From the sequence record OR544954: a stretch of DNA of 64,000 nt. One strand, written 5' to 3'. The notes under the pieces were generated by a model that searched no databases, was not told the origin of the DNA, and saw nothing but the letters and a program-made list of their open reading frames with translations. Positions 3,156-51,315 of this stretch are shown here, one piece after another; position 1 is the first letter of the stretch, and each line of letters begins with the position of its first letter. Made by a program: the position numbers and the translations under genes. Source of the stretch: Escherichia phage vB_EcoM_EP32a.

Positions 3156-3605
3156 ATGGCCTACTCTGGTAAATGGGTCCCAAAAAATTTAAAAAAATAC
3201 CGTGGAGACCATACCAAAATAACGTATCGTTCAAACTGGGAAAAATTCTTTTTCGAATGGTTGGATAAAAATCCAGAAATTATTGCATGGGGTAGTGAAA
3301 CAGCAGTAATTCCATATTTTTGTAATGCTGAAGGTAAGAAACGTCGATACTATATGGACATATGGATGAAAGATGCATCAGGCCAAGAGTTTTTTGTAGA
3401 AATAAAACCAAAGAAAGAAACTCAACCACCTATTAAGCCCGTAAATCTTACGACCGCAGCAAAGAAACGTTATATGAATGAAATCTACACGTGGTCTGTG
3501 AACTGTGACAAATGGAAAGCTGCTTCAGCTGTTGCTGAAAAGAGAAATATAAAATTTCGAGTTCTAACCGAAGATGGACTTAGGAAACTCGGATACAAGG
3601 GGTAA
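3156..3605 (+). CDS. 4: head completion protein gp4
   Basis: [43 protein letters not shown]... matches T4 gp4; start moved to the internal ATG preceded by AAGGAGG. Confidence 0.9.
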
Positions 3606-3607
3606 TT

Positions 3608-7579: not shown

Positions 7580-7646
7580 TTCTTTACGCTAAAGTAAAAT
7601 CTGTCGAGAACGGATATGAAAGCGACTAGTCGATGACTATGGTATT

Positions 7647-7851: not shown

Positions 7852-8367
7852 ATGAATATTCGTTTAGGCAGTACAATTCCTAAGGGCTACGTAATTGATG
7901 TCACTACCTAGGAAAATGATGGTGACAACTATAAAACCAAAACATTGTTTGAAGTGGAAGAGCATGAGCTCCAACAGTTTAAATATCTCTTGAAGAAATT
8001 TAAGAGTCGTCATTCTAGCACTAAAGCCGAACGTTATTGTGGTAATACACCATTCAGTGATTGCTCGCTTTTAATCTATGAATACTTGGTTGAAGGGCTG
8101 TTCTCAGACCAGCTTTATCCAGAATTTATTAAAAAGGTCTTTGATATTGAAGTCGACCTCGGTAATAAATCTGAAGAAGACGAAGCGCGTGTATTTGACC
8201 TGTTCCATGAGAATGGATATTTAGTATCAGAAGGTCTCATTGATATTCTTGGCCATGCTTCTGAATACTATGATTACGATTTCTTGCGTGTAGTTGAACG
8301 TGTCGAATTTGCTTATATTGAAGAAGAAATCGTTTTGCCAACCGTTAAAATGGTTGATTTGCTTTAA
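7852..8367 (+). CDS. hypothetical protein, reading frame interrupted by in-frame TAG at 7909-7911
   Basis: ATG 7852 with GGTGA SD opens MNIRLGSTIPKGYVIDVTT, then TAG, then the same frame continues ENDGDNYKTKTLFEVEEHELQQ... to 8367. Confidence 0.4.
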
Positions 8368-8446: not shown

Positions 8447-8520
8447 GGCCCTGTAGCTCAATGGTTAGCAGCAGTCCCCTCATAAGGGAAAGGTTACCAG
8501 TTCGAATCTGGTCTGGGTCA
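8447..8520 (+). tRNA. tRNA with CAU anticodon (Met, or Ile-AUA if lysidine-modified)
   Basis: Manual cloverleaf fold: acceptor GGCCCTG/CTGGGTC, T-arm ACCAG-TTCGAAT-CTGGT, anticodon loop CTCATAA; D-stem imperfect. Confidence 0.7.
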
Positions 8521-8526
8521 TATATT

Positions 8527-8603
<77 letters not shown>

Positions 8604-8621
8604 ACTTTAAGTGAGGAAAAT

Positions 8622-9017
8622 ATGAAAGGCAATGTTTATCTGGTAGTTCATGATTTAACGTTTTATTTTAACGAACGTGAAACAGTTATTTCCGACCGGT
8701 TGATTAATTCGTTATATCAACACGCTGATTACGTTTATTTCCAAAATGAATTTGGCCATTGGAAGTTCATTAAAAACCGTTCTGGGTTAACTAGTTTTGA
8801 ATACTTTGACCGTAAAGACCTTTTAAACGAAATCCCATTGCAACATCGGTTCCAGAAACGCGAATCATTATATTATTGCCGTCATATATCAAATGCTGAA
8901 TGTGTTGATGAAGTAATTAATCTATGGCGTAGACGTAGAGAAAACAAATTGATGATATGTCAAAATAAGAAGCCGGGTCGCTACCGGCAAGTCGTCGGAC
9001 TGATGTTCCCTGAGTAA
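8622..9017 (+). CDS. hypothetical protein
   Basis: ATG after GTGAGGAAAA; the listed 8574 start would overlap the tRNA. Confidence 0.55.
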   Translation: MKGNVYLVVHDLTFYFNERETVISDRLINSLYQHADYVYFQNEFGHWKFIKNRSGLTSFEYFDRKDLLNEIPLQHRFQKRESLYYCRHISNAECVDEVINLWRRRRENKLMICQNKKPGRYRQVVGLMFPE

Positions 9018-9029
9018 GGACTGGTCTTA

Positions 9030-9280
9030 ATAAATCTTTACGATTTGTTAATATCCCCTTACATCACAGCAGAAACGGCGCACCGAATTATCGATTCGAG
9101 GAAATATCTTTGCCGTAAGCCGAGTAGCGTTTTTGACGGAACGTTCGGATATGGTCGAGATATGGCCTTTTAAAAATATTGAGTAGCGTCAACTGCTTAA
9201 TAACCGGGTTCGAATCCCGGCGTTTCGTACAAACACTTTGCCTTAGTAGGTGGAACCCCGACAAGGTTGCCGCAAGGCTT
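9030..9280 (+). ncRNA. candidate small stable RNA(s) (tRNA-like; analogous to T4 RNA C/D region)
   Basis: About 250 nt with no ORF next to the tRNAs; T-arm-like CCGGG-TTCGAAT-CCCGG at 9204-9220; repeated GAGTAGCGT at 9122 and 9181; ends at a terminator. Confidence 0.3.
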
Positions 9281-9308
9281 AGCCCCTTCCGAAAGGTCGG
9301 GGCTTTTT
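9281..9308 (+). terminator. rho-independent terminator
   Basis: GCCCCttccgaaaggtcGGGGC hairpin followed by TTTTT. Confidence 0.6.
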
Positions 9309-9320
9309 GAGGAAAATGTT

Positions 9321-9623
9321 ATGAGTCTTTACACTGAACTGAATAAAAAATCTGAAGAATCTGCTGAAACTATTTTTAAAAACGTGCAAAAGCGTATTTT
9401 AGAAAAGATGTATAACGCTGCAGCTAAAGGTGAAAAATCTTGCCGGTTTCCGATTAGGTGTTCTTCCGATTTATGCGCAAATACTATTGAATGGTTGGAA
9501 AGTGAAGGTCTTACGGTAGAGAAAAACCCGGCGACTTCTATTGGCAGTGAATCATATATTAGTATTTCTTGGGATAAATCAACAAAATTAAAAATAATGA
9601 TGTACAAGCACCAAGGATGGTGA
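9321..9623 (+). CDS. hypothetical protein
   Basis: ATG after GAGGAAAA; 100 aa. Confidence 0.5.
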   Translation: MSLYTELNKKSEESAETIFKNVQKRILEKMYNAAAKGEKSCRFPIRCSSDLCANTIEWLESEGLTVEKNPATSIGSESYISISWDKSTKLKIMMYKHQGW

Positions 9624-9659
9624 TACTATAGACTTATCAACTACAAAGGAGTAAACAAA

Positions 9660-9824
9660 ATGACTACTTTAATTATTTGGTTCGATGAAAATGAAGAAAC
9701 ATACTGTGTGAATATTGGTGAAAGTCCAATGCCTGAATTTGAATCCTCAGATAAAAACTCTGTTGTATCTTGGGCTGAAGGTTATAAAGCCGCTAAAGGT
9801 GACGTTGAAATAATTTACATCTAA
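9660..9824 (+). CDS. small hypothetical protein (54 aa)
   Basis: ATG after AAGGAG, downstream of a promoter-like TACTATAGAC element; below the ORF-track size cutoff. Confidence 0.4.
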   Translation: MTTLIIWFDENEETYCVNIGESPMPEFESSDKNSVVSWAEGYKAAKGDVEIIYI

Positions 9825-9870
9825 GTAAGTTTATGTTATAGTAATCACATCAAATAAAGAGGAAAACAAA

Positions 9871-10098
9871 ATGGCTAAAGTTAGTATTGATGTCGTTGAT
9901 TATGAATACACCGAAGAAGTTATTCGCAACCGACACCCTGAAGTTCGTATCGATTCAGTCCAAGATTCCAAGTTCTGGACAACTGAGCTTAATCTGAGTG
10001 GTCCTTATGAAGCTGTTAAGAAGTTCATGGTTGAAGAATACTGCGAAGGCATGCACCCTGAAGATGCAGAATTTTATGTCAACTTGATTAAAAAATAA
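9871..10098 (+). CDS. hypothetical protein
   Basis: 75-aa ORF after promoter cassette 9811-9845 and AGAGGAAAA SD. Confidence 0.5.
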   Translation: MAKVSIDVVDYEYTEEVIRNRHPEVRIDSVQDSKFWTTELNLSGPYEAVKKFMVEEYCEGMHPEDAEFYVNLIKK

Positions 10099-10168
10099 TT
10101 TACAAACTCTCGAGAGCAGAGTATAATGCTCTCGTTGGATAATAAACCACCAATTGAAAGGTAATAAT

Positions 10169-10762
10169 ATGAACACACTGAAGAAACTTGTTGAATTCAT
10201 CCGCACTAAACTGGGTACTGCTATGGCTAAAAATCTGACTGTCGAAGAACAGTATAACGCAGCTGCAGATAAGTTGATTACCCAAATCAAAGAACTAAAA
10301 ACGGCTTCTGTTAAATCTATTAATGAAGAAAAACGTATTCGCGAACTTGTTAATGAAAAGAATAAGCAAGCCGCTTCTAAGGAACGTGAAATTCGTAAGC
10401 TCCTGGCTGAAGGACAAGATGTTACTATGCATGCTAAGCTTGGTCTTCTGTATCGTCGAACTGCCGAACAACTTAATACAAAAGCTGACGGGTATGCCGC
10501 TATGCGAATTGAAATTGCTCGTAAGGTGGTTGAACTTGATGATGCTCGTCAGAATCTGGCAATCAAACTCGAATACATTCGTGAAACTCGAGCAGCCAAT
10601 GCCCTTGGTATCTCTACGGCTGATGATGTAATTGAAATCGCTGCACTGACTAAGGTTGATATCGAAGACACTCTGACTCGTGTTGAAACGTTCAATGGCA
10701 CTCCAGCCGGTGTCGAAACCACTTCTGCTGATGTACAAGAATATATTAACTCTTTGAAATAA
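10169..10762 (+). CDS. coiled-coil protein (possible PspA/IM30-like architecture)
   Basis: 197 aa, heptad-rich helical sequence; resemblance to PspA is by pattern only. Confidence 0.5.
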
Positions 10763-10770
10763 AATAATAC

Positions 10771-10794
10771 GGAGGACTCCGGTCCTCCTTTTGG
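10771..10794 (+). terminator. rho-independent terminator
   Basis: GGAGGACTccGGTCCTCC hairpin followed by TTTT. Confidence 0.6.
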
Positions 10795-10811
10795 ATAATA
10801 AAGGAGTTAAC

Positions 10812-11414
10812 ATGCGAAACCAAAATAATGATATTGACTCAATGTTCGAAGAGTTCCGAAATAAGGTAAATCCACCTACGTCTTTAGTTGATTCATTACG
10901 ATATGTTGCAACTGGACGTAAATGGTACTGGTCGTCTTCTTATGAGACTACTGAGAAAACGGCCAGCCATAGCAGAAAATCTTTATTAGCCCCAGGTATT
11001 ATGATTCATGATATCGGAGCTATTGCTAAACTAGTTGCAGACCATGATATTAGATTCACTGATTTCGTTGCTCCTACGTGGTCTGTTTGTTGTTTAAACA
11101 CTGAATGGGAATATATCAGCGAACGCTCTAAAGATTATTATGGTTTTAGAGACAAGCTTTTAAGGTCTAACATGTTTTATATTGATACAGAAGTTCTGGT
11201 CAATAATAAAAAATACTACTTCACTTTAATCATCGATTCTGAAACTATGTATGAAGGCAAGCCTTTGCTTAAGAGAGTTGATGCTTTAAGTGCTATTGAT
11301 GCGCTTTATGAAACTATGGTTGTTAGTCCTAATTTCACTAACAATTTAATCCTTGAGCAATTTATTATGGAATGTAGAGAATATGTCAAAGCCAACCCTA
11401 TACATGCCAAGTAA
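10812..11414 (+). CDS. hypothetical protein, C-terminal EQFIMECRE motif
   Basis: 200-aa ORF; ATG after AAGGAG. Confidence 0.55.
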   Translation: MRNQNNDIDSMFEEFRNKVNPPTSLVDSLRYVATGRKWYWSSSYETTEKTASHSRKSLLAPGIMIHDIGAIAKLVADHDIRFTDFVAPTWSVCCLNTEWEYISERSKDYYGFRDKLLRSNMFYIDTEVLVNNKKYYFTLIIDSETMYEGKPLLKRVDALSAIDALYETMVVSPNFTNNLILEQFIMECREYVKANPIHAK

Positions 11415-11778
11415 GCCCTGGGCGTATGAATACAAGCGTAAATTAATCCCAAATGAAGTACTATTTGGCCCTATTTTAGCTTTAGCATTTTTAATCTTTA
11501 TGATTATAGGAGCTGTTTTAGATTCTAGTGAAGTTATATCGTCTGATGCAGCATTTTCATTAATGTTCGTCGCACCACTTATTGTACCGTTTTTATTAAT
11601 GCCTATTAATTGGGTAGGATATTGGCACCAAGGCCGTCATCACAGAGCCCGATTAAGAGAATGGAAAGTTCAGTGCGCAAAAGCCCAAGCTCAGTATGAT
11701 GAAGCTGTTAAAAAGTATGAATATGAAGAAGCTATGGAATTCGTTAAGGAAATAAGATGCAAAAGCCTCAACTCTTAA
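11383..11778 (+). CDS. small membrane protein
   Basis: Hydrophobic segments ILALAFLIFMIIGAVL and MFVAPLIVPFLLMPI; start overlaps upstream ECRE motif. Confidence 0.5.
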   Translation: MSKPTLYMPSKPWAYEYKRKLIPNEVLFGPILALAFLIFMIIGAVLDSSEVISSDAAFSLMFVAPLIVPFLLMPINWVGYWHQGRHHRARLREWKVQCAKAQAQYDEAVKKYEYEEAMEFVKEIRCKSLNS

Positions 11779-12116
11779 CCGTATGGCCTTCTCTTGGTGA
11801 GAACATTCTAATTTTTATTATGAGTATTGGCATGGGATTTGCCTTTGGATTAGTTGGATTTCTTATTGACGGCGTTGTGTTAGGATTTATAGGGAACACT
11901 GGTGGATTCACAGACCAATGGCAGGACTTACGGTACACCCAAGCCTTTGCATCCATCGCATCATTTTGTACTGTAGTCTATTTTTACTACGATTTTATAA
12001 ACCACAACAAGAAAAATAAAAAGGTTTACGCTTCTCAAATGATTAGTTATAATGAACTCCTAGCTAGACGTGAAAATGAAACAATCGAAAACTTTATTAA
12101 GGAATGTAGAAAATGA
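11757..12116 (+). CDS. small membrane protein, C-terminal ENFIKECRK motif
   Basis: TM segments; conserved C-terminal motif. Confidence 0.5.
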   Translation: MQKPQLLTVWPSLGENILIFIMSIGMGFAFGLVGFLIDGVVLGFIGNTGGFTDQWQDLRYTQAFASIASFCTVVYFYYDFINHNKKNKKVYASQMISYNELLARRENETIENFIKECRK

Positions 12117-12418
12117 GTAAGATTATTGAAATTAAAGTACCAGAGTTTAATGATGCCAAATCCGCTTCAGATGCAATTTATAAACTTCTGAATCAAGCTG
12201 AACGTATCGAAGAAGAAGCAACAAAGATCGCAGACCAATATGCCGTATCATTTTCTGTAGGTGATTATGGTAGCGGTCGTACTTATTATCCTAAGGGTGA
12301 AATCGTATCCCAGTGGATGAAAGATGAAATTGAAAATAATGGCGGCGATGTTAAGCGTGAAGGTAATGGATACGTTATTACTGAAGGTGCTTGGGTTTCG
12401 TCTTCTGCGTTGTGCTAA
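12113..12418 (+). CDS. small protein, C-terminal GAWVSSSALC (paralog 1 of 3)
   Basis: ATGA-coupled ORF; shares C-terminal GWVxSSxxC with the next two ORFs. Confidence 0.5.
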   Translation: MSKIIEIKVPEFNDAKSASDAIYKLLNQAERIEEEATKIADQYAVSFSVGDYGSGRTYYPKGEIVSQWMKDEIENNGGDVKREGNGYVITEGAWVSSSALC

Positions 12419-12427
12419 GGAATCATT

Positions 12428-12700
12428 ATGTCTAAAGAACAAACCGAACTGGCTGAAGCTGTAGCAAAAATCTATGCAGCTATTGAGGCTGCCAAAGAAA
12501 TTGCTGATAAACAAAACACAACATTCAACTTGTACCCAGCTTATGGTATGGGTGGAACCTATCATTCACCCGGACATCTTAAAGCCGATCTTGAACGTTG
12601 TACAAAAAACGGCTATGCTGAATGGGCTGACGTTTACCAATACGACTACAACCTGAGCCTCGAAACTGGTGGTTGGGTCGCATCTTCTCACACTTGCTAA
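12428..12700 (+). CDS. small protein, C-terminal GGWVASSHTC (paralog 2 of 3)
   Basis: ORF after AAGGAA SD. Confidence 0.5.
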   Translation: MSKEQTELAEAVAKIYAAIEAAKEIADKQNTTFNLYPAYGMGGTYHSPGHLKADLERCTKNGYAEWADVYQYDYNLSLETGGWVASSHTC

Positions 12701-12709
12701 GGAAACAAT

Positions 12710-12907
12710 ATGTCTCGTGAATTAGATTGTGCTGTACGTACGGCAGTAGCTGCTCTGGAAAACCTGTTCCAAATTGCAACAGAAGAACGCGAAGAAGTTA
12801 CATTATGGATTGAAGATAACGCAGGTCTGAATCTCCAGGACGCGATCTCATTATCCCACAATAGTATCACTGTTCAAGGCTGGGTATCATCTAGTTATTC
12901 TTGCTAA
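12710..12907 (+). CDS. small protein, C-terminal QGWVSSSYSC (paralog 3 of 3)
   Basis: ORF after AAGGAAA SD. Confidence 0.5.
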   Translation: MSRELDCAVRTAVAALENLFQIATEEREEVTLWIEDNAGLNLQDAISLSHNSITVQGWVSSSYSC

Positions 12908-14533: not shown

Positions 14534-14839
14534 ATGAAATTAGGCGAAACCAACCGAATTGGTCTTTTAACAATATTTGTATCACTTTTTTACGCAGCTC
14601 TTTCTGTTGCAGTATTACAAAAGGCTTACAGTATGGATGGTGTTCCTGGTTGTATATTTTTATCACCATTTTTGCTATTCGTTGGAGCTTTGTTATTATA
14701 TGCCACGTCTGGTTTCGACAATAATGTCTGGGTCAATTATAAACGTAAATTGTCTGAAGAAGAACACGCAGAAGCTCGTAAAAAAGCTATTGAATCTACC
14801 AATCTAGAAAATTTCATTAAAGAATGTCGAGGAAAATAA
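14534..14839 (+). CDS. small membrane protein, C-terminal ENFIKECRGK motif
   Basis: TM segments LLTIFVSLFYAALSVAVL and FLSPFLLFVGALLLY. Confidence 0.5.
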   Translation: MKLGETNRIGLLTIFVSLFYAALSVAVLQKAYSMDGVPGCIFLSPFLLFVGALLLYATSGFDNNVWVNYKRKLSEEEHAEARKKAIESTNLENFIKECRGK

Positions 14840-14967
14840 TATGAATAGTTCTAAAGTGTTTAATAGTCAAGCTCGTGCAGTAGGTGGTTTTGCTCACGCG
14901 ATTAAAAATGACCAGATTAAAAACGAGCCTATGTTCTTCAACTGTAGTATTTGATTCACGAGTCCAT

Positions 14968-15441
14968 ATGCTGATGCCTGGTTGGTATCCTGCTATTCCA
15001 GGTTATCACCATGACGATGTACCACGCCCGGATATTCCAGTTGGTCAACACTTTATTACTGCAGGACAACCTGACTATGACAATCCTCGCTATTTGTCTG
15101 AACACATTCTTGGTCTTGTTAACGCTGATGTGTGTCCTACTCATTTTGCAACAGGAACTGCAGAGTTCAGTCAGATTCCTGATGGCGAACTTATCTATCG
15201 CCAGTGGCACAAAGAAGTCCTCGAAAAAATCGAAAAAGGTGAACTAGAGAAATGGGAAGCTCCGGACCGTACTCTTCTTCAGTTTGATTGGCAAACATGG
15301 CACACTGGTTCTCGTGCAATTAGTAATGGATGGCGTTGGTTCGGACGTGTATCTCGTAATACAGACCGAGTTAAAAAGATTACCAATGAAATTCGTGTCA
15401 ATGCTCAAGTTTATCTGGAATTCCCTATGGAAGGCTGGTAA
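14968..15441 (+). CDS. hypothetical protein (possibly the shifted continuation of the 14851-14964 mini-ORF)
   Basis: 157-codon ORF from an ATG without an SD; a strongly SD-led 37-codon ORF (14851-14964) ends in another frame just upstream. Confidence 0.35.
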   Translation: MLMPGWYPAIPGYHHDDVPRPDIPVGQHFITAGQPDYDNPRYLSEHILGLVNADVCPTHFATGTAEFSQIPDGELIYRQWHKEVLEKIEKGELEKWEAPDRTLLQFDWQTWHTGSRAISNGWRWFGRVSRNTDRVKKITNEIRVNAQVYLEFPMEGW

Positions 15442-18351: not shown

Positions 18352-18891
18352 ATGAGAACATTTTTAACTGGACCTTATCTATCCCTGATGAATGCTTTTA
18401 CACACCATTCTGATGCTAGAGTAGAAGAAATTTGTAAGAACGGTTATGTCCCGCCATTTGAAGAAGTACTCAAGCAGTACTGTACACTTCGTTTAGACGG
18501 CGGCCGACAATCCGGTAAATAAATTGCTGTGACTAACTTTGCTGCTAATTGGCTGTATGATGGTGGAACAGTTATTGTTCTTTCTAATACTTCAGCTTAT
18601 GCTAAAATTTCTGCTGGCAACATTAAAAAAGAATTTTCTCGTTATTCTAGCGATGATATTCGATTCCGTTTATTTACTGATTCTGTTCGTAGTTTTATTG
18701 GCAATGAAGGTTCTAAATTCCGTGGATTAACGCTTTCTCGTATTCTGTATATAATTGACGAGCCTATTAAAGCTCCTGATATGGATAAGATTTACAATGT
18801 ACATATTAAAACAGTCCAACACTGTTGCAAAAGCAAATATTGCATCGGCGGTAATGCTCGTCCTCAATTTTTTGTGATTGGAATGCAATGA
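18352..18891 (+). CDS. putative P-loop NTPase interrupted by in-frame TAA (18520-18522) directly after the Walker A lysine
   Basis: ...LRLDGGRQSGK-TAA-IAVTNFAANWLYDGG...ILYIIDEP in one continuous frame; GxxxxGK is followed by a stop where S/T is expected; Walker-B-like IIDE downstream. Confidence 0.4.
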
Positions 18892-29896: not shown

Positions 29897-30727
29897 ATGG
29901 CTTTTATTACACGTAGAGAACTTATCAAAGAATTTACCTCTAACGCATATACTCCAGGACCTAATCCTATCCGTATGCCTGTAAAGACTCCTGAAGAGAT
30001 TGAGGAAATCTGTTCATATTATGGGATTACTTCTCGTAAGTTTACTCAATTTGAATGTGTTACTAACACACCCGTTAAAGAGTTCATTAAAAATGGCGAG
30101 TTCAGCCGTTTATTAGCCAAACAGAAACTTCGTAATTTTTGTATCGGCGGTGAAGGACAATATTTCGCTAAGCAGTTCCGAAATAACCTTAACAATCTGA
30201 TGGCCATTGCTTCTCGTATTCGTCCTCAAGCAATTAACATGAAACATTTGAAATATACTTACGATAAGTTAGAAATCATGGTTATCAGTGAGAACGAGTT
30301 CACTCTTACATATAATCCTAAGAATGATAACGTTGCTCGTGTATTCCACCAAGCACTGGAAGTTTTAGGCGATAATATCCACCAGATTAAAGCGATTTAT
30401 TCTCGTGAGCTTAATATTATTGACCCTATCAAGAATAAGGGCAATATCGCTATCCAGGCTCGTGTATCTATTGGTAAAAAGGTTCCTGCGCCATGGTGGC
30501 ACAAAGACTCTGAATACTATCAAAATCTTAAAAAGGAAAATGCATTGTTTGAAGCTCTTCTTCCGGCCGAAGATTACCATTACAATCAAATCAAGGCCAC
30601 TATGGACCAACTGTCTGTTGAACTTGACAAAGCACAAGCTAAGCTTCGTGATGCTCAACAAGTAGTTACCAATCTCCAGTTGCAGTACTCTAAACTTTTT
30701 AACGCAATGAATGCATTAAAATCATAA
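29897..30727 (+). CDS. hypothetical protein with C-terminal coiled coil (family member 2 of 3)
   Basis: 276 aa; preceded by caaccaaggatggttgGAGTATAAT cassette. Confidence 0.5.
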   Translation: MAFITRRELIKEFTSNAYTPGPNPIRMPVKTPEEIEEICSYYGITSRKFTQFECVTNTPVKEFIKNGEFSRLLAKQKLRNFCIGGEGQYFAKQFRNNLNNLMAIASRIRPQAINMKHLKYTYDKLEIMVISENEFTLTYNPKNDNVARVFHQALEVLGDNIHQIKAIYSRELNIIDPIKNKGNIAIQARVSIGKKVPAPWWHKDSEYYQNLKKENALFEALLPAEDYHYNQIKATMDQLSVELDKAQAKLRDAQQVVTNLQLQYSKLFNAMNALKS

Positions 30728-42649: not shown

Positions 42650-42875
42650 TTATGAAATCCATCGTCATGAATTTAGTATTGGTGACGGTTATATTGGTAT
42701 CGTTGAATGGACCGAGAATTACGAGGAATCAACTCCTCGTTTCTTTGGAACAATGTATGTTACCTGTGAGTACGCACCAGGTGTTGTTATGTATGCAGAA
42801 CTAGATGAATATTTTGCTGATAGAGATGACATGTTAAAATATGTAGAGGACTTCATTCGAAGAGAATACATATGA
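42636..42875 (+). CDS. hypothetical protein (46.x position)
   Basis: 79-aa ORF. Confidence 0.45.
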   Translation: MTKTDYEIHRHEFSIGDGYIGIVEWTENYEESTPRFFGTMYVTCEYAPGVVMYAELDEYFADRDDMLKYVEDFIRREYI

Positions 42876-44392
42876 AATCATTTAAATTAAATCGTGTTCG
42901 TTATCAAAACATCATGTCGGTAGGTGGGAATCCTATTGATATCCAATTAGATAAAGTCCAAAAGACATTAATCACTGGTAAAAATGGCGGTGGTAAATCT
43001 ACGATGTTAGAAGCCATTACTTTCGGACTTTTCGGTAAACCATTTCGTGATGTTAAGAAAGGACAAATCATTAACAGCACGAATAAGAAAGAGCTCTTAG
43101 TTGAGCTTTGGATGGAATTCGATGGTAAAAAATACTTCATTAAACGTGGCCAAAAGCCCAATATTTTCGAAATCTCCGTTGACGGTGTTCGTCTTGATGA
43201 ATCTGCCAGCAGTCGCGACTTCCAAGAAGAATTTGAACGTAGCATCGGAATGTCATACGCGTCTTTTAAACAAATCGTTGTGCTTGGGACGGCAGGGTAT
43301 ACCCCTTTCATGGCTCTTAGCACCCCTGCTCGTAGAAAACTTGTCGAAGACCTTTTAGAAGTCGGCACACTCGCTGAAATGGATAAAATCAATAAGTCTC
43401 AAGTTCGAGAACTTAATTCCCAGGGACAAGTTCTCGATGCCAAGAAAGATGGTATTATCCAACAAATTAAGATTTATAACGAGAATATCGAACGTCAAAA
43501 GAAATTATCTGGTGATAATGTAGCGCGTCTACAGAATATGTATGACGACCTAGCCAAAGAAGCTCGTTCATTAAAAGCAGAAATCGAAGAAGCTAATGAG
43601 CGACTACTTAATATCGTTCTTGACGAAGACCCTACTGAGGCATTCAACAAGATAGGACAAGAAGCATTCTTGATTAAATCTAAAATTGACTCATATAACA
43701 AAGTTATTAAGATGTATCATGATGGCGGTACATGTCCTACTTGTGCATCACAGTTGCACCAGGGTGATCCTATTGTCTCTAAGATTACCGATAAGCTTCA
43801 CGAATGTAATCACTCATTCGAGCAACTTACATGTCACAGAGATAATCTGAGTGTCCTAGTGGACGAATATAGAGCTAATGTTAAGACTAAACAGGACCTT
43901 GCATCTGATATTCGCACCAAGAAACAAGCAATGATTGCCACTATTGATAAAGCTAAGAAAGTTAAAGCTGCAATAGAGCAAGCCTCAGCAGAATTTATCG
44001 ACCATGCCGATGAGATAGCTTTGCTTCAAAAAGAACTTGATAAAATCATTAAAACAAAATCAGATATCGTTCTTGAAAAATACCATCGTGGTATTATCAC
44101 AGATATGTTAAAAGATTCTGGTATTAAAGGTGCTATCATTAAAAAATATGTGCCTCTGTTCAACAAGCAGATTAACCATTATCTTAAAATCATGGAAGCT
44201 GATTACGTGTTTTCTATTGATGAAGAATTCAATGAATCTATAAAATCACGTGGTCGTGAAGATTTTAGTTATGCTTCATTTAGTCAAGGTGAAAAAGCGC
44301 GTATCGATATCGCATTGTTGTTTACATGGCGAGATATTGCTGAAAAGGTCTCTGGCGTTAGAATCAACAAACGTGTTCATTATTTGTCATAG
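42872..44392 (+). CDS. 46: recombination endonuclease subunit gp46 (Rad50/SbcC-like), frame broken near 44366-44372; the H-loop segment continues in another frame to 44471
   Basis: Walker A GKNGGGKST, coiled coil, signature FSQGEKARIDIAL; after ...VSGVRIN the frame stops (KRVHYLS*), while the shifted frame reads TNVFIICHRDHDPQAYGQHLQMSKVGRFTVMTVS; no Walker B/D-loop between signature and H-loop. Confidence 0.85.
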   Translation: MKSFKLNRVRYQNIMSVGGNPIDIQLDKVQKTLITGKNGGGKSTMLEAITFGLFGKPFRDVKKGQIINSTNKKELLVELWMEFDGKKYFIKRGQKPNIFEISVDGVRLDESASSRDFQEEFERSIGMSYASFKQIVVLGTAGYTPFMALSTPARRKLVEDLLEVGTLAEMDKINKSQVRELNSQGQVLDAKKDGIIQQIKIYNENIERQKKLSGDNVARLQNMYDDLAKEARSLKAEIEEANERLLNIVLDEDPTEAFNKIGQEAFLIKSKIDSYNKVIKMYHDGGTCPTCASQLHQGDPIVSKITDKLHECNHSFEQLTCHRDNLSVLVDEYRANVKTKQDLASDIRTKKQAMIATIDKAKKVKAAIEQASAEFIDHADEIALLQKELDKIIKTKSDIVLEKYHRGIITDMLKDSGIKGAIIKKYVPLFNKQINHYLKIMEADYVFSIDEEFNESIKSRGREDFSYASFSQGEKARIDIALLFTWRDIAEKVSGVRINKRVHYLS

Positions 44393-44475
44393 AGACCATG
44401 ACCCACAAGCTTATGGACAACATCTTCAAATGAGCAAAGTTGGACGATTTACTGTAATGACTGTTTCATAAACGC

Positions 44476-50679: not shown

Positions 50680-51315
50680 ATGAAAACTACTCCTATTACT
50701 ATCGCTATTGACGCAATCATAAAACAAGCTTCTTCTTTGGCCGCTATGGCCAAAGTAATTAGTCAAAACCCTGCTCGTTATAATGCTATTCTAGAAACTC
50801 TTCGACGCCCTGGACTTAGTAATTATGAAAGCCGGGTAATTATTACAGGTGTTGGTAAGAATGCTAATATCGCAACTAAAGCTTCCGAGACTTTTGCTTC
50901 ACTAGGTATTCCTAGCATGTATTTGAACACCGGGCATTATTCTCATGGTGATGCAGGATTTATTGCGCCTAATGATGTGTTGATTCATATTAGTCGTTCT
51001 GGTAAAACTGAAGAAATGATAGGTGTTGCTAAACATCTTCGTATGATTCGTCCTCAGGTTAAACAGATTCTGTTACATTGTAACCCAGACATTCCACAAG
51101 AATACGAAGCTCTTTTTGATTATACGTTCTGTACCGGTATCGCGGTAGAAGTTGACGAGAACTCTTTGGCTCCGACTATGTCCACTACATTGTTGTTAGC
51201 GCTTATCGATACGTTTGCTATCAACCTTTCGTCTGAACGCGGATTTACCTCTAATGACTTCCTTAAGTTCCACCCTGGTGGTGCACTAGGTGCCATGTTA
51301 CGAGGCGAACAATGA
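50680..51315 (+). CDS. SIS-domain sugar phosphate isomerase, KdsD/GutQ-type arabinose-5-phosphate isomerase-like
   Basis: VIITGVGKNANIATKASETFASLGIP, HGDAGF, ISRSGKTEE, LAPTMSTT, RGFTSNDFLKFHPGGALG align with the KdsD SIS domain by eye; 211 aa, single SIS domain. Confidence 0.8.
   Translation: MKTTPITIAIDAIIKQASSLAAMAKVISQNPARYNAILETLRRPGLSNYESRVIITGVGKNANIATKASETFASLGIPSMYLNTGHYSHGDAGFIAPNDVLIHISRSGKTEEMIGVAKHLRMIRPQVKQILLHCNPDIPQEYEALFDYTFCTGIAVEVDENSLAPTMSTTLLLALIDTFAINLSSERGFTSNDFLKFHPGGALGAMLRGEQ

Follow-up and report, generated by a model that had tools for sequence, protein, structure and literature searches.

A frame-breaking gap in gene 46 of the genome record of Escherichia phage vB_EcoM_EP32a is probably an artefact of assembly or finishing

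Introduction

The closest known counterparts of the gene described here are gp46 of phage RB69 (NP_861753.1, 562 aa) and gp46 of phage T4, the Rad50/SbcC-like ATPase subunit of the gp46/47 (Mre11-Rad50) recombination nuclease. Gp46 and gp47 are essential in T4, as a preliminary description of the present locus had noted for gp46, and their inactivation leads to the strongest DNA-arrest phenotype (PMC3016281). In T4 recombination mutants, inactivation of UvsW suppresses the DNA arrest (PMC3016281).

Escherichia phage vB_EcoM_EP32a (EP32a; OR544954) is an RB69-like Mosigvirus, and the closest complete genome to it in the phage collection, that of APCEc01, is 97.7% identical across 24 kb. It was obtained, like its sister phage EP32b (vB_EcoP_EP32B, OR544955.1; hereafter EP32B), from enrichments on host J32, and the isolate underwent three rounds of plaque purification (PMC11657129). 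Sequencing was by NextSeq 2x150 at about 100 Mb per sample, followed by Trimmomatic and de novo assembly with SPAdes 3.13, and the reported genomes measure 163,906 bp (EP32a) and 156,698 bp (EP32B; PMC11657129). The complete Mosigvirus records among the matches listed are mostly 167-171 kb. The latent period of EP32a is 15 min and its burst is 392 PFU per cell; that of EP32B is 200 PFU per cell (PMC11657129).

Here we compared gene 46 of EP32a with its relatives within a 64,000-nucleotide stretch of OR544954, referred to below as the window. The gene as deposited lacks 89 bp that encode the Walker B motif and D-loop, and we consider the manner in which this segment was most likely lost.

Results

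Gene 46 of EP32a and its neighbourhood

The gene order around gene 46 is canonical (55 - a-gt.x - 47 - 46.2 - 46.1 - 46 - 45.2 - rpbA - 45 - 44 - 62 - regA - 43), and EP32a shares with RB69 the neighbours 47, 46.2, 46.1, 45.2, rpbA and 45. The RpbA protein encoded in the window is WPK28855.1 of vB_EcoM_EP32a, and the exact 506-aa gene 46 product is WPK28852.1, annotated as a recombination-related endonuclease of the same phage. The Mre11/SbcD-like partner nuclease, gp47, is present and intact, and its exact protein sequence occurs on 184 contigs, other Mosigviruses among them. Coordinates of all features are given in Table 1.

Table 1 Features of the gene 46 region and gaps in the EP32a and EP32B assemblies, in window coordinates.
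Feature	Position	Strand	Evidence or remark
Gene 47, Mre11/SbcD-like nuclease partner, intact, 339 aa	41376..42395	+	ORF list
Gene 46 codons 1-499, Rad50/SbcC-like ATPase, authentic frame	42872..44368	+	ORF list, translation, Pfam, Rad50 structures
Walker A, GKNGGGKST	42977-43003 (residues 36-44)	+	translation
Zinc hook CPTC in the coiled coil	43733-43744 (residues 288-291)	+	translation
ABC signature, FSQGEKARIDIAL	44279-44317 (residues 470-482)	+	translation
Out-of-frame tail KRVHYLS followed by TAG (44390-44392), product of the frame shift	44369..44392	+	ORF list, translation
Authentic gene 46 C-terminus, last 33 codons (NVFIICHRDHDPQ...TVMTVS, stop), +1 frame	44370..44471	+	aligned to the gp46 C-termini of RB69 and APCEc01 (last 33 codons)
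Junction, 89 bp missing (88 bp in EP32B)	44369..44370	+	alignments
Shared site in RB69ORF132c homologue, frameshifted	14942		EP32a 86 bp, EP32B 92 bp
Shared site in nrdC.5-like gene, in frame in EP32a	30555		EP32a 105 bp relative to APCEc01 and 129 bp relative to O157 typing phage 3, its closest allele; EP32B 109 bp
Shared site in gene 46, frameshifted	44369		EP32a 89 bp, EP32B 88 bp
EP32B gap in DNA polymerase gene 43	homologous to 50976-51135		three-way alignment
EP32B gaps, further examples	homologous to 3530-3606 and 8466-12742		three-way alignment

The frame-0 open reading frame of gene 46 has 506 codons (42872-44392). Its identification as a Rad50/SbcC-like gp46 with Walker A, coiled coil and ABC signature, made in the preliminary description, was confirmed by translation, Pfam and Rad50 structures. 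Pfam matches were AAA_23, AAA_29, ABC_tran, SMC_N and Rad50_zn_hook, the last of which falls below the Pfam cut-off (E = 0.0078), as it also does for the intact gp46 of RB69. The Walker A motif aligns to the P-loop of Rad50 in structure 3qf7, with a further Rad50 structure match to 3tho. A long coiled coil carries the CxxC zinc hook. The signature motif is identical in RB69 gp46, where it aligns to LSGGERALISISL of 3qf7. EP32a gp46 thus resembles its RB69 counterpart in Walker A, zinc hook, signature and H-loop, the last of these in another frame.

That frame break had been placed after ...VSGVRIN, and this is correct: these are the last in-frame residues, codon 499 ends at 44368, and seven foreign codons follow before the stop. 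The +1 frame from 44370 to 44471 reads NVFIICHRDHDPQAYGQHLQMSKVGRFTVMTVS and then a stop, so that the C-terminus with its H-loop is intact, and it lies out of frame as had been described. The H-loop His codon (44388-44390) is read in the +1 frame only, beyond the point at which frame 0 diverges, which would place it on a separate polypeptide from Walker A and the signature. EP32a therefore differs from RB69 in having a 506-aa product and an orphan 33-codon tail, without T500-A529 of the RB69 protein.

The codon before the H-loop His (44385-44387) specifies Cys (TGT) in EP32a, where relatives have Ser (FIISH). Relatives encode this Ser by TCT or AGT, and TGT is one change from each. The TGT allele was found in no other record, and the best match to the right flank has 95.9% identity.

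The missing segment encodes Walker B and the D-loop

The gene 46 span in EP32a (42872-44471) is 1600 bp and that of RB69 is 1689 bp, a difference of 89. Alignment with RB69, APCEc01, DCP548, O157 typing phage 3 and CEV1, all of which contain the segment, placed the absence of exactly 89 bp at the 44369/44370 junction, to within 1 nt. The gap is a determinate sequence difference and not a statistical one. The loss had been estimated at roughly 80 bp and non-triplet; the second part holds and the first is too small. Since 89 is not a multiple of three, frame 0 stops at 44392 and the last 33 codons are pushed into +1.

The missing residues correspond to T500-A529 of RB69 gp46 (TLIMDEVMDSATDSEGIKAISTILNSLTDA), 30 residues that include Walker B and the D-loop. 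In a HMMER alignment to Thermotoga maritima Rad50 (3qf7), ntlimDE pairs with daffiDE, the Walker B motif, and DEvmdsatD pairs with DEGFSSLD, the D-loop. The Walker B core in the lost segment is LIMDE or LILDE, RB69 having TLIMDEVMDSATD and APCEc01 having TLILDEVFDGAVD. As had been noticed, no Walker B (hhhhDE) lies between the signature and the H-loop; it and the D-loop are missing from the 506-codon reading frame, from the +1 tail and from the window as a whole, and searches of the whole window with both cassette alleles (blastn-short and tblastn) gave nothing significant.

In principle, an active ATPase could form from two separate fragments or from their fusion by a programmed +1 frameshift, and the 33 C-terminal codons are indeed open in +1 and overlap the end of the frame-0 reading frame. 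This possibility, raised in the preliminary description as a split enzyme, is effectively refuted. Walker B and the D-loop are in neither fragment and no cassette allele occurs elsewhere in the window as DNA or protein, so a fused product would still be without the catalytic Asp-Glu. Moreover, the sequence at 44360-44392 has no evident slippery or hop signal, and the C-terminal piece of 33 aa has no family match in Pfam. Because neither Walker B nor the D-loop is found anywhere in the window, gene 46 as deposited is predicted to be unable to encode an active ABC ATPase, whether as one product, two, or a frameshifted one; on this evidence it cannot. Judged by its sequence, the gene is unambiguously gene 46 by descent, but as deposited it is a disrupted member of the Rad50/SbcC-type ABC ATPases.

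The remainder of the gene is well conserved. Residues 1-499 have 99.2% protein identity to APCEc01, and the retained 1600 bp have 98.3% nucleotide identity to RB69. Together with the open 33-codon tail and the intact gene 47, the 99.2% identity gives no sign of decay or of a pseudogene.

The gap is confined to two assemblies of one study

Gene 46 is matched by 565 phage records, and among the matches listed all span the additional 89 bp except OR544955 (vB_EcoP_EP32B). In the protein cluster of gp46 at 90% identity (216 members, 40 of them read), all proteins listed have 562 aa apart from the short forms of EP32a (506 aa) and EP32B (520 aa), which are found on one NCBI contig each. A 28-mer across the EP32a junction was in no record of the phage collection, which contains OR544955 and OR544956 but not OR544954 itself, and the junction was likewise not found in IMG/VR or in JGI metagenomes. 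The exact 506-aa protein is known from the NCBI deposit only, on one contig, and from no Logan assembly. Among the records listed, the cluster members read, IMG/VR and the JGI metagenomes, the gap is thus restricted to EP32a and EP32B, products of a single pipeline. It had been considered that relatives might share the junction and encode an intact ATPase in some other way. This is not the case: EP32B shares the gapped cassette, but its gene is also frame-broken, and no alternative coding for the ATPase was found.

The sister assembly EP32B

Gp46 of EP32B (WPK29061.1, 520 aa) lacks 88 bp at the same cassette and is also out of frame, and the two assemblies come from the same laboratory, type of sequencing run and assembler. 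They differ in other respects. Over about 150 bp around the junction there are five SNPs and one base of gap length (about 3.5%), and the surrounding block is about 2.8% divergent. Since the end point of the EP32B gap is 1 nt off and the flanks differ by about 3.5%, the gap allele was not recently shared between the two.

EP32B has many more gaps than EP32a, DNA polymerase included. Gene 43 has a 160-bp out-of-frame gap, 77 bp are absent at the boundary of gene 4 and gene 2, and a 5-kb gap removes the tRNA region. More than 20 other gaps occur in the region homologous to the window, most of them in conserved sequence. As deposited, with a broken gene 43, EP32B could not replicate, yet the phage grows; the pipeline must therefore lose sequence. 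Biologically impossible lesions other than that of gene 46 are thus found in the output of this pipeline, and OR544955 is unreliable as a complete genome. EP32B carries a podovirus-type name (vB_EcoP) yet is a Mosigvirus.

Coincident gaps lie on multi-allelic cassettes

When APCEc01 and EP32B were aligned together with the whole window, EP32a and EP32B proved to coincide at two further in-gene gaps, at 14942 and 30555, with end points offset by 4-11 nt. The segments missing at these two sites are present in all other records listed. The gap at 14942 splits the homologue of RB69ORF132c and APCEc01_172 (228 aa) into reading frames at 14808-14954 and 14884-15441. This cassette is bi-allelic, with a divergent DCP548 type and a type common to RB69 and APCEc01, and the left junction bases in EP32a are of the DCP548 type. 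The site at 30555 is hypervariable and variable in length, with RB69, APCEc01 and O157 typing phage 3 all different, and the EP32a flanks match O157 typing phage 3 at 100%.

All three shared sites are short cassettes with sharply different Mosigvirus alleles between conserved flanks. In gene 46, identity between the RB69 and APCEc01 types is 60% across 88 nt, compared with 97.7% for the left flank and 90% for the right flank, and both gap ends lie no more than 1 nt from where the allele-specific bases begin and end. The two genomes, from one laboratory, thus carry six separate events at three sites, a pattern that mutation hardly accounts for but that a technical failure tied to particular sites readily does. 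Spontaneous deletions in T4 usually arise between short direct repeats. There is no direct repeat longer than about 2 nt at the gene 46 junction, nor at the junctions at 14942 and 30555.

The Walker B/D-loop cassettes of Mosigviruses fall into two types, that of RB69 given above and that of APCEc01 and O157 typing phage 3 (TLILDEVFDGAVDSEAVKAIDTILGSLQNT), a very localised mosaic within the core of an essential ATPase. Other lesions in the window lie outside the shared sites. A 19-bp gap at 7624 is present in EP32a only, the segment being retained in EP32B, APCEc01 and RB69, and it frameshifts the tRNA.2 homologue (APCEc01_154). The non-essential RB69ORF151c homologue has a premature TAG at codon 20 (7909-7911; relatives have TGG or TAT), and the non-essential vs.8 homologue has a premature TAA (18520-18522; relatives have TCA). 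These two stops could reflect either real pseudogenes or errors.

Base-level quality of the window

Several other accounts of the record were examined and set aside. Sequencing noise was rejected: substitutions private to the window comprise 334 synonymous, 64 non-synonymous and one stop, similar to the ratios in APCEc01 (257/47) and EP32B (380/77), and this normal pattern indicates that the base calls record genuine evolutionary change. Two codons hinted at a consensus mixed base by base from two strains: the TGT of FII(S/C)H, one step from TCT and AGT, and the TAG at 7909, one step from TAT and TGG. The number of novel two-site haplotypes within 2-20 nt gave no excess, however, with 18/396 in the window, 19/402 in APCEc01 and 16/164 in RB69. 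Mismatches at the junctions were not a product of poor contig ends, as the sequences at 14942 (98.1% to DCP548) and 30555 (100% to O157 typing phage 3) are natural alleles.

The proposal that all drop-outs fall on divergent cassettes is true for the three shared in-gene gaps and false for most EP32B gaps, as these are in conserved sequence. No highly divergent segment is kept by both EP32a and EP32B, save for one borderline stretch at 72%. This joint absence fits a mixed stock but does not discriminate, as the window compared with APCEc01 also has none.

Discussion

We conclude that the gene 46 gap in OR544954 is likely an artefact of genome assembly or finishing and not the mark of a defective or unusual phage. 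Of the three origins offered in the preliminary description, assembly error is the one favoured here. This reading is preferred because the gap is unique to two assemblies of one study, the sister assembly is itself defective and EP32a is reported to grow; because the same three sites are hit in both assemblies with different end points, on multi-allelic cassettes; because the junctions have no repeat longer than about 2 nt, unlike the usual T4 deletions; and because gene 46 is otherwise undecayed. The real EP32a very probably carries a continuous gene 46 of 562 codons with an ordinary Walker B/D-loop cassette.

Short-read assemblies can collapse or drop strain-variable segments, a general class of misassembly. 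The EP32a and EP32B records resemble this class in that short divergent cassettes are lost between conserved flanks, related samples are affected at the same sites with shifted end points, and base accuracy elsewhere is normal. We infer the exact step of the pipeline at which bases were lost: the assembler would have been unable to resolve the divergent cassette, and the flanks would have been joined with nothing between them, creating a false frameshift. Possible causes are a stock with more than one Mosigvirus, giving an unresolved bubble; a scaffold gap stripped of its Ns; or a reference-guided ordering of contigs in which the unaligned stretch was discarded. Some observations run against an artefact. 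Plain de novo SPAdes does not normally delete a clean 89 bp, and PMC11657129 describes no software step that removes bases. The base-level sequence of the window is good, and the haplotype counts, which are nearly the same in the window and APCEc01, give no support to a mixed-strain consensus.

The occurrence of the gap in two assemblies could also mean that deleted molecules existed in a shared lysate. In such a mixed stock, a co-infecting Mosigvirus would supply gp46 in trans and genomes with a real deletion would persist in, or even dominate, the DNA preparation. The gap at the same cassette in both J32-enrichment assemblies and the clean junction are consistent with this, and EP32B was described as short-tailed (PMC11657129) although its genome is that of a Mosigvirus, of the myovirus type, which hints at impure stocks. 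We nevertheless consider a defective isolate of this kind unlikely. At none of the three shared sites do the end points agree, and the flanks are 3-4% divergent, so a single inherited deletion allele does not account for the gaps. The stock was plaque-purified three times and has a high burst, and at low multiplicity of infection a lethal allele cannot remain predominant. In addition, the EP32B gaps in conserved essential genes point to technical loss of sequence.

In a variant of the mixed-stock account, the coincident gaps would be real and would have formed when cassette alleles of co-infecting Mosigviruses paired as heteroduplexes, with the mismatch bubbles excised (for example by endonuclease VII-type cleavage and ligation) and the defective genomes kept by complementation. 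Such excision would explain the same sites, the different end points and the lack of microhomology in two co-isolated phages, but we regard it as highly improbable, slightly more so than a viable gp46-null phage.

That last alternative, in which EP32a truly lacks gp46 function and lives through a suppressor such as loss of UvsW, or on a host that makes Mre11/Rad50 dispensable, is itself very unlikely. The relief of T4 DNA arrest by UvsW inactivation (PMC3016281) provides a precedent, and other, non-essential genes in the window are broken (by the 19-bp gap at 7624, by a TAG stop at 7909 and by a TAA stop at 18520). However, uvsW lies outside the window, growth is wild-type-like, at 392 PFU per cell after a latent period of 15 min, and such a burst after three plaque purifications does not fit a T4-type phage without gp46. 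Gene 47 is also perfectly conserved, gene 46 has not decayed further, and the cassette is kept in all of the other Mosigvirus records examined.

The main value of the finding is in quality control. OR544954 and OR544955 are offered as complete genomes of biocontrol candidates, and they contain frame-breaking gaps in essential genes, namely gene 46 in both records and DNA polymerase in EP32B. Caution is due for safety or comparative claims that are based on annotation, and for the entries WPK28852.1 and WPK29061.1. Were the deletion true, a T4-type phage would grow well without Rad50 ATPase activity, which would be surprising; the evidence points instead to an EP32a with an ordinary gene 46.
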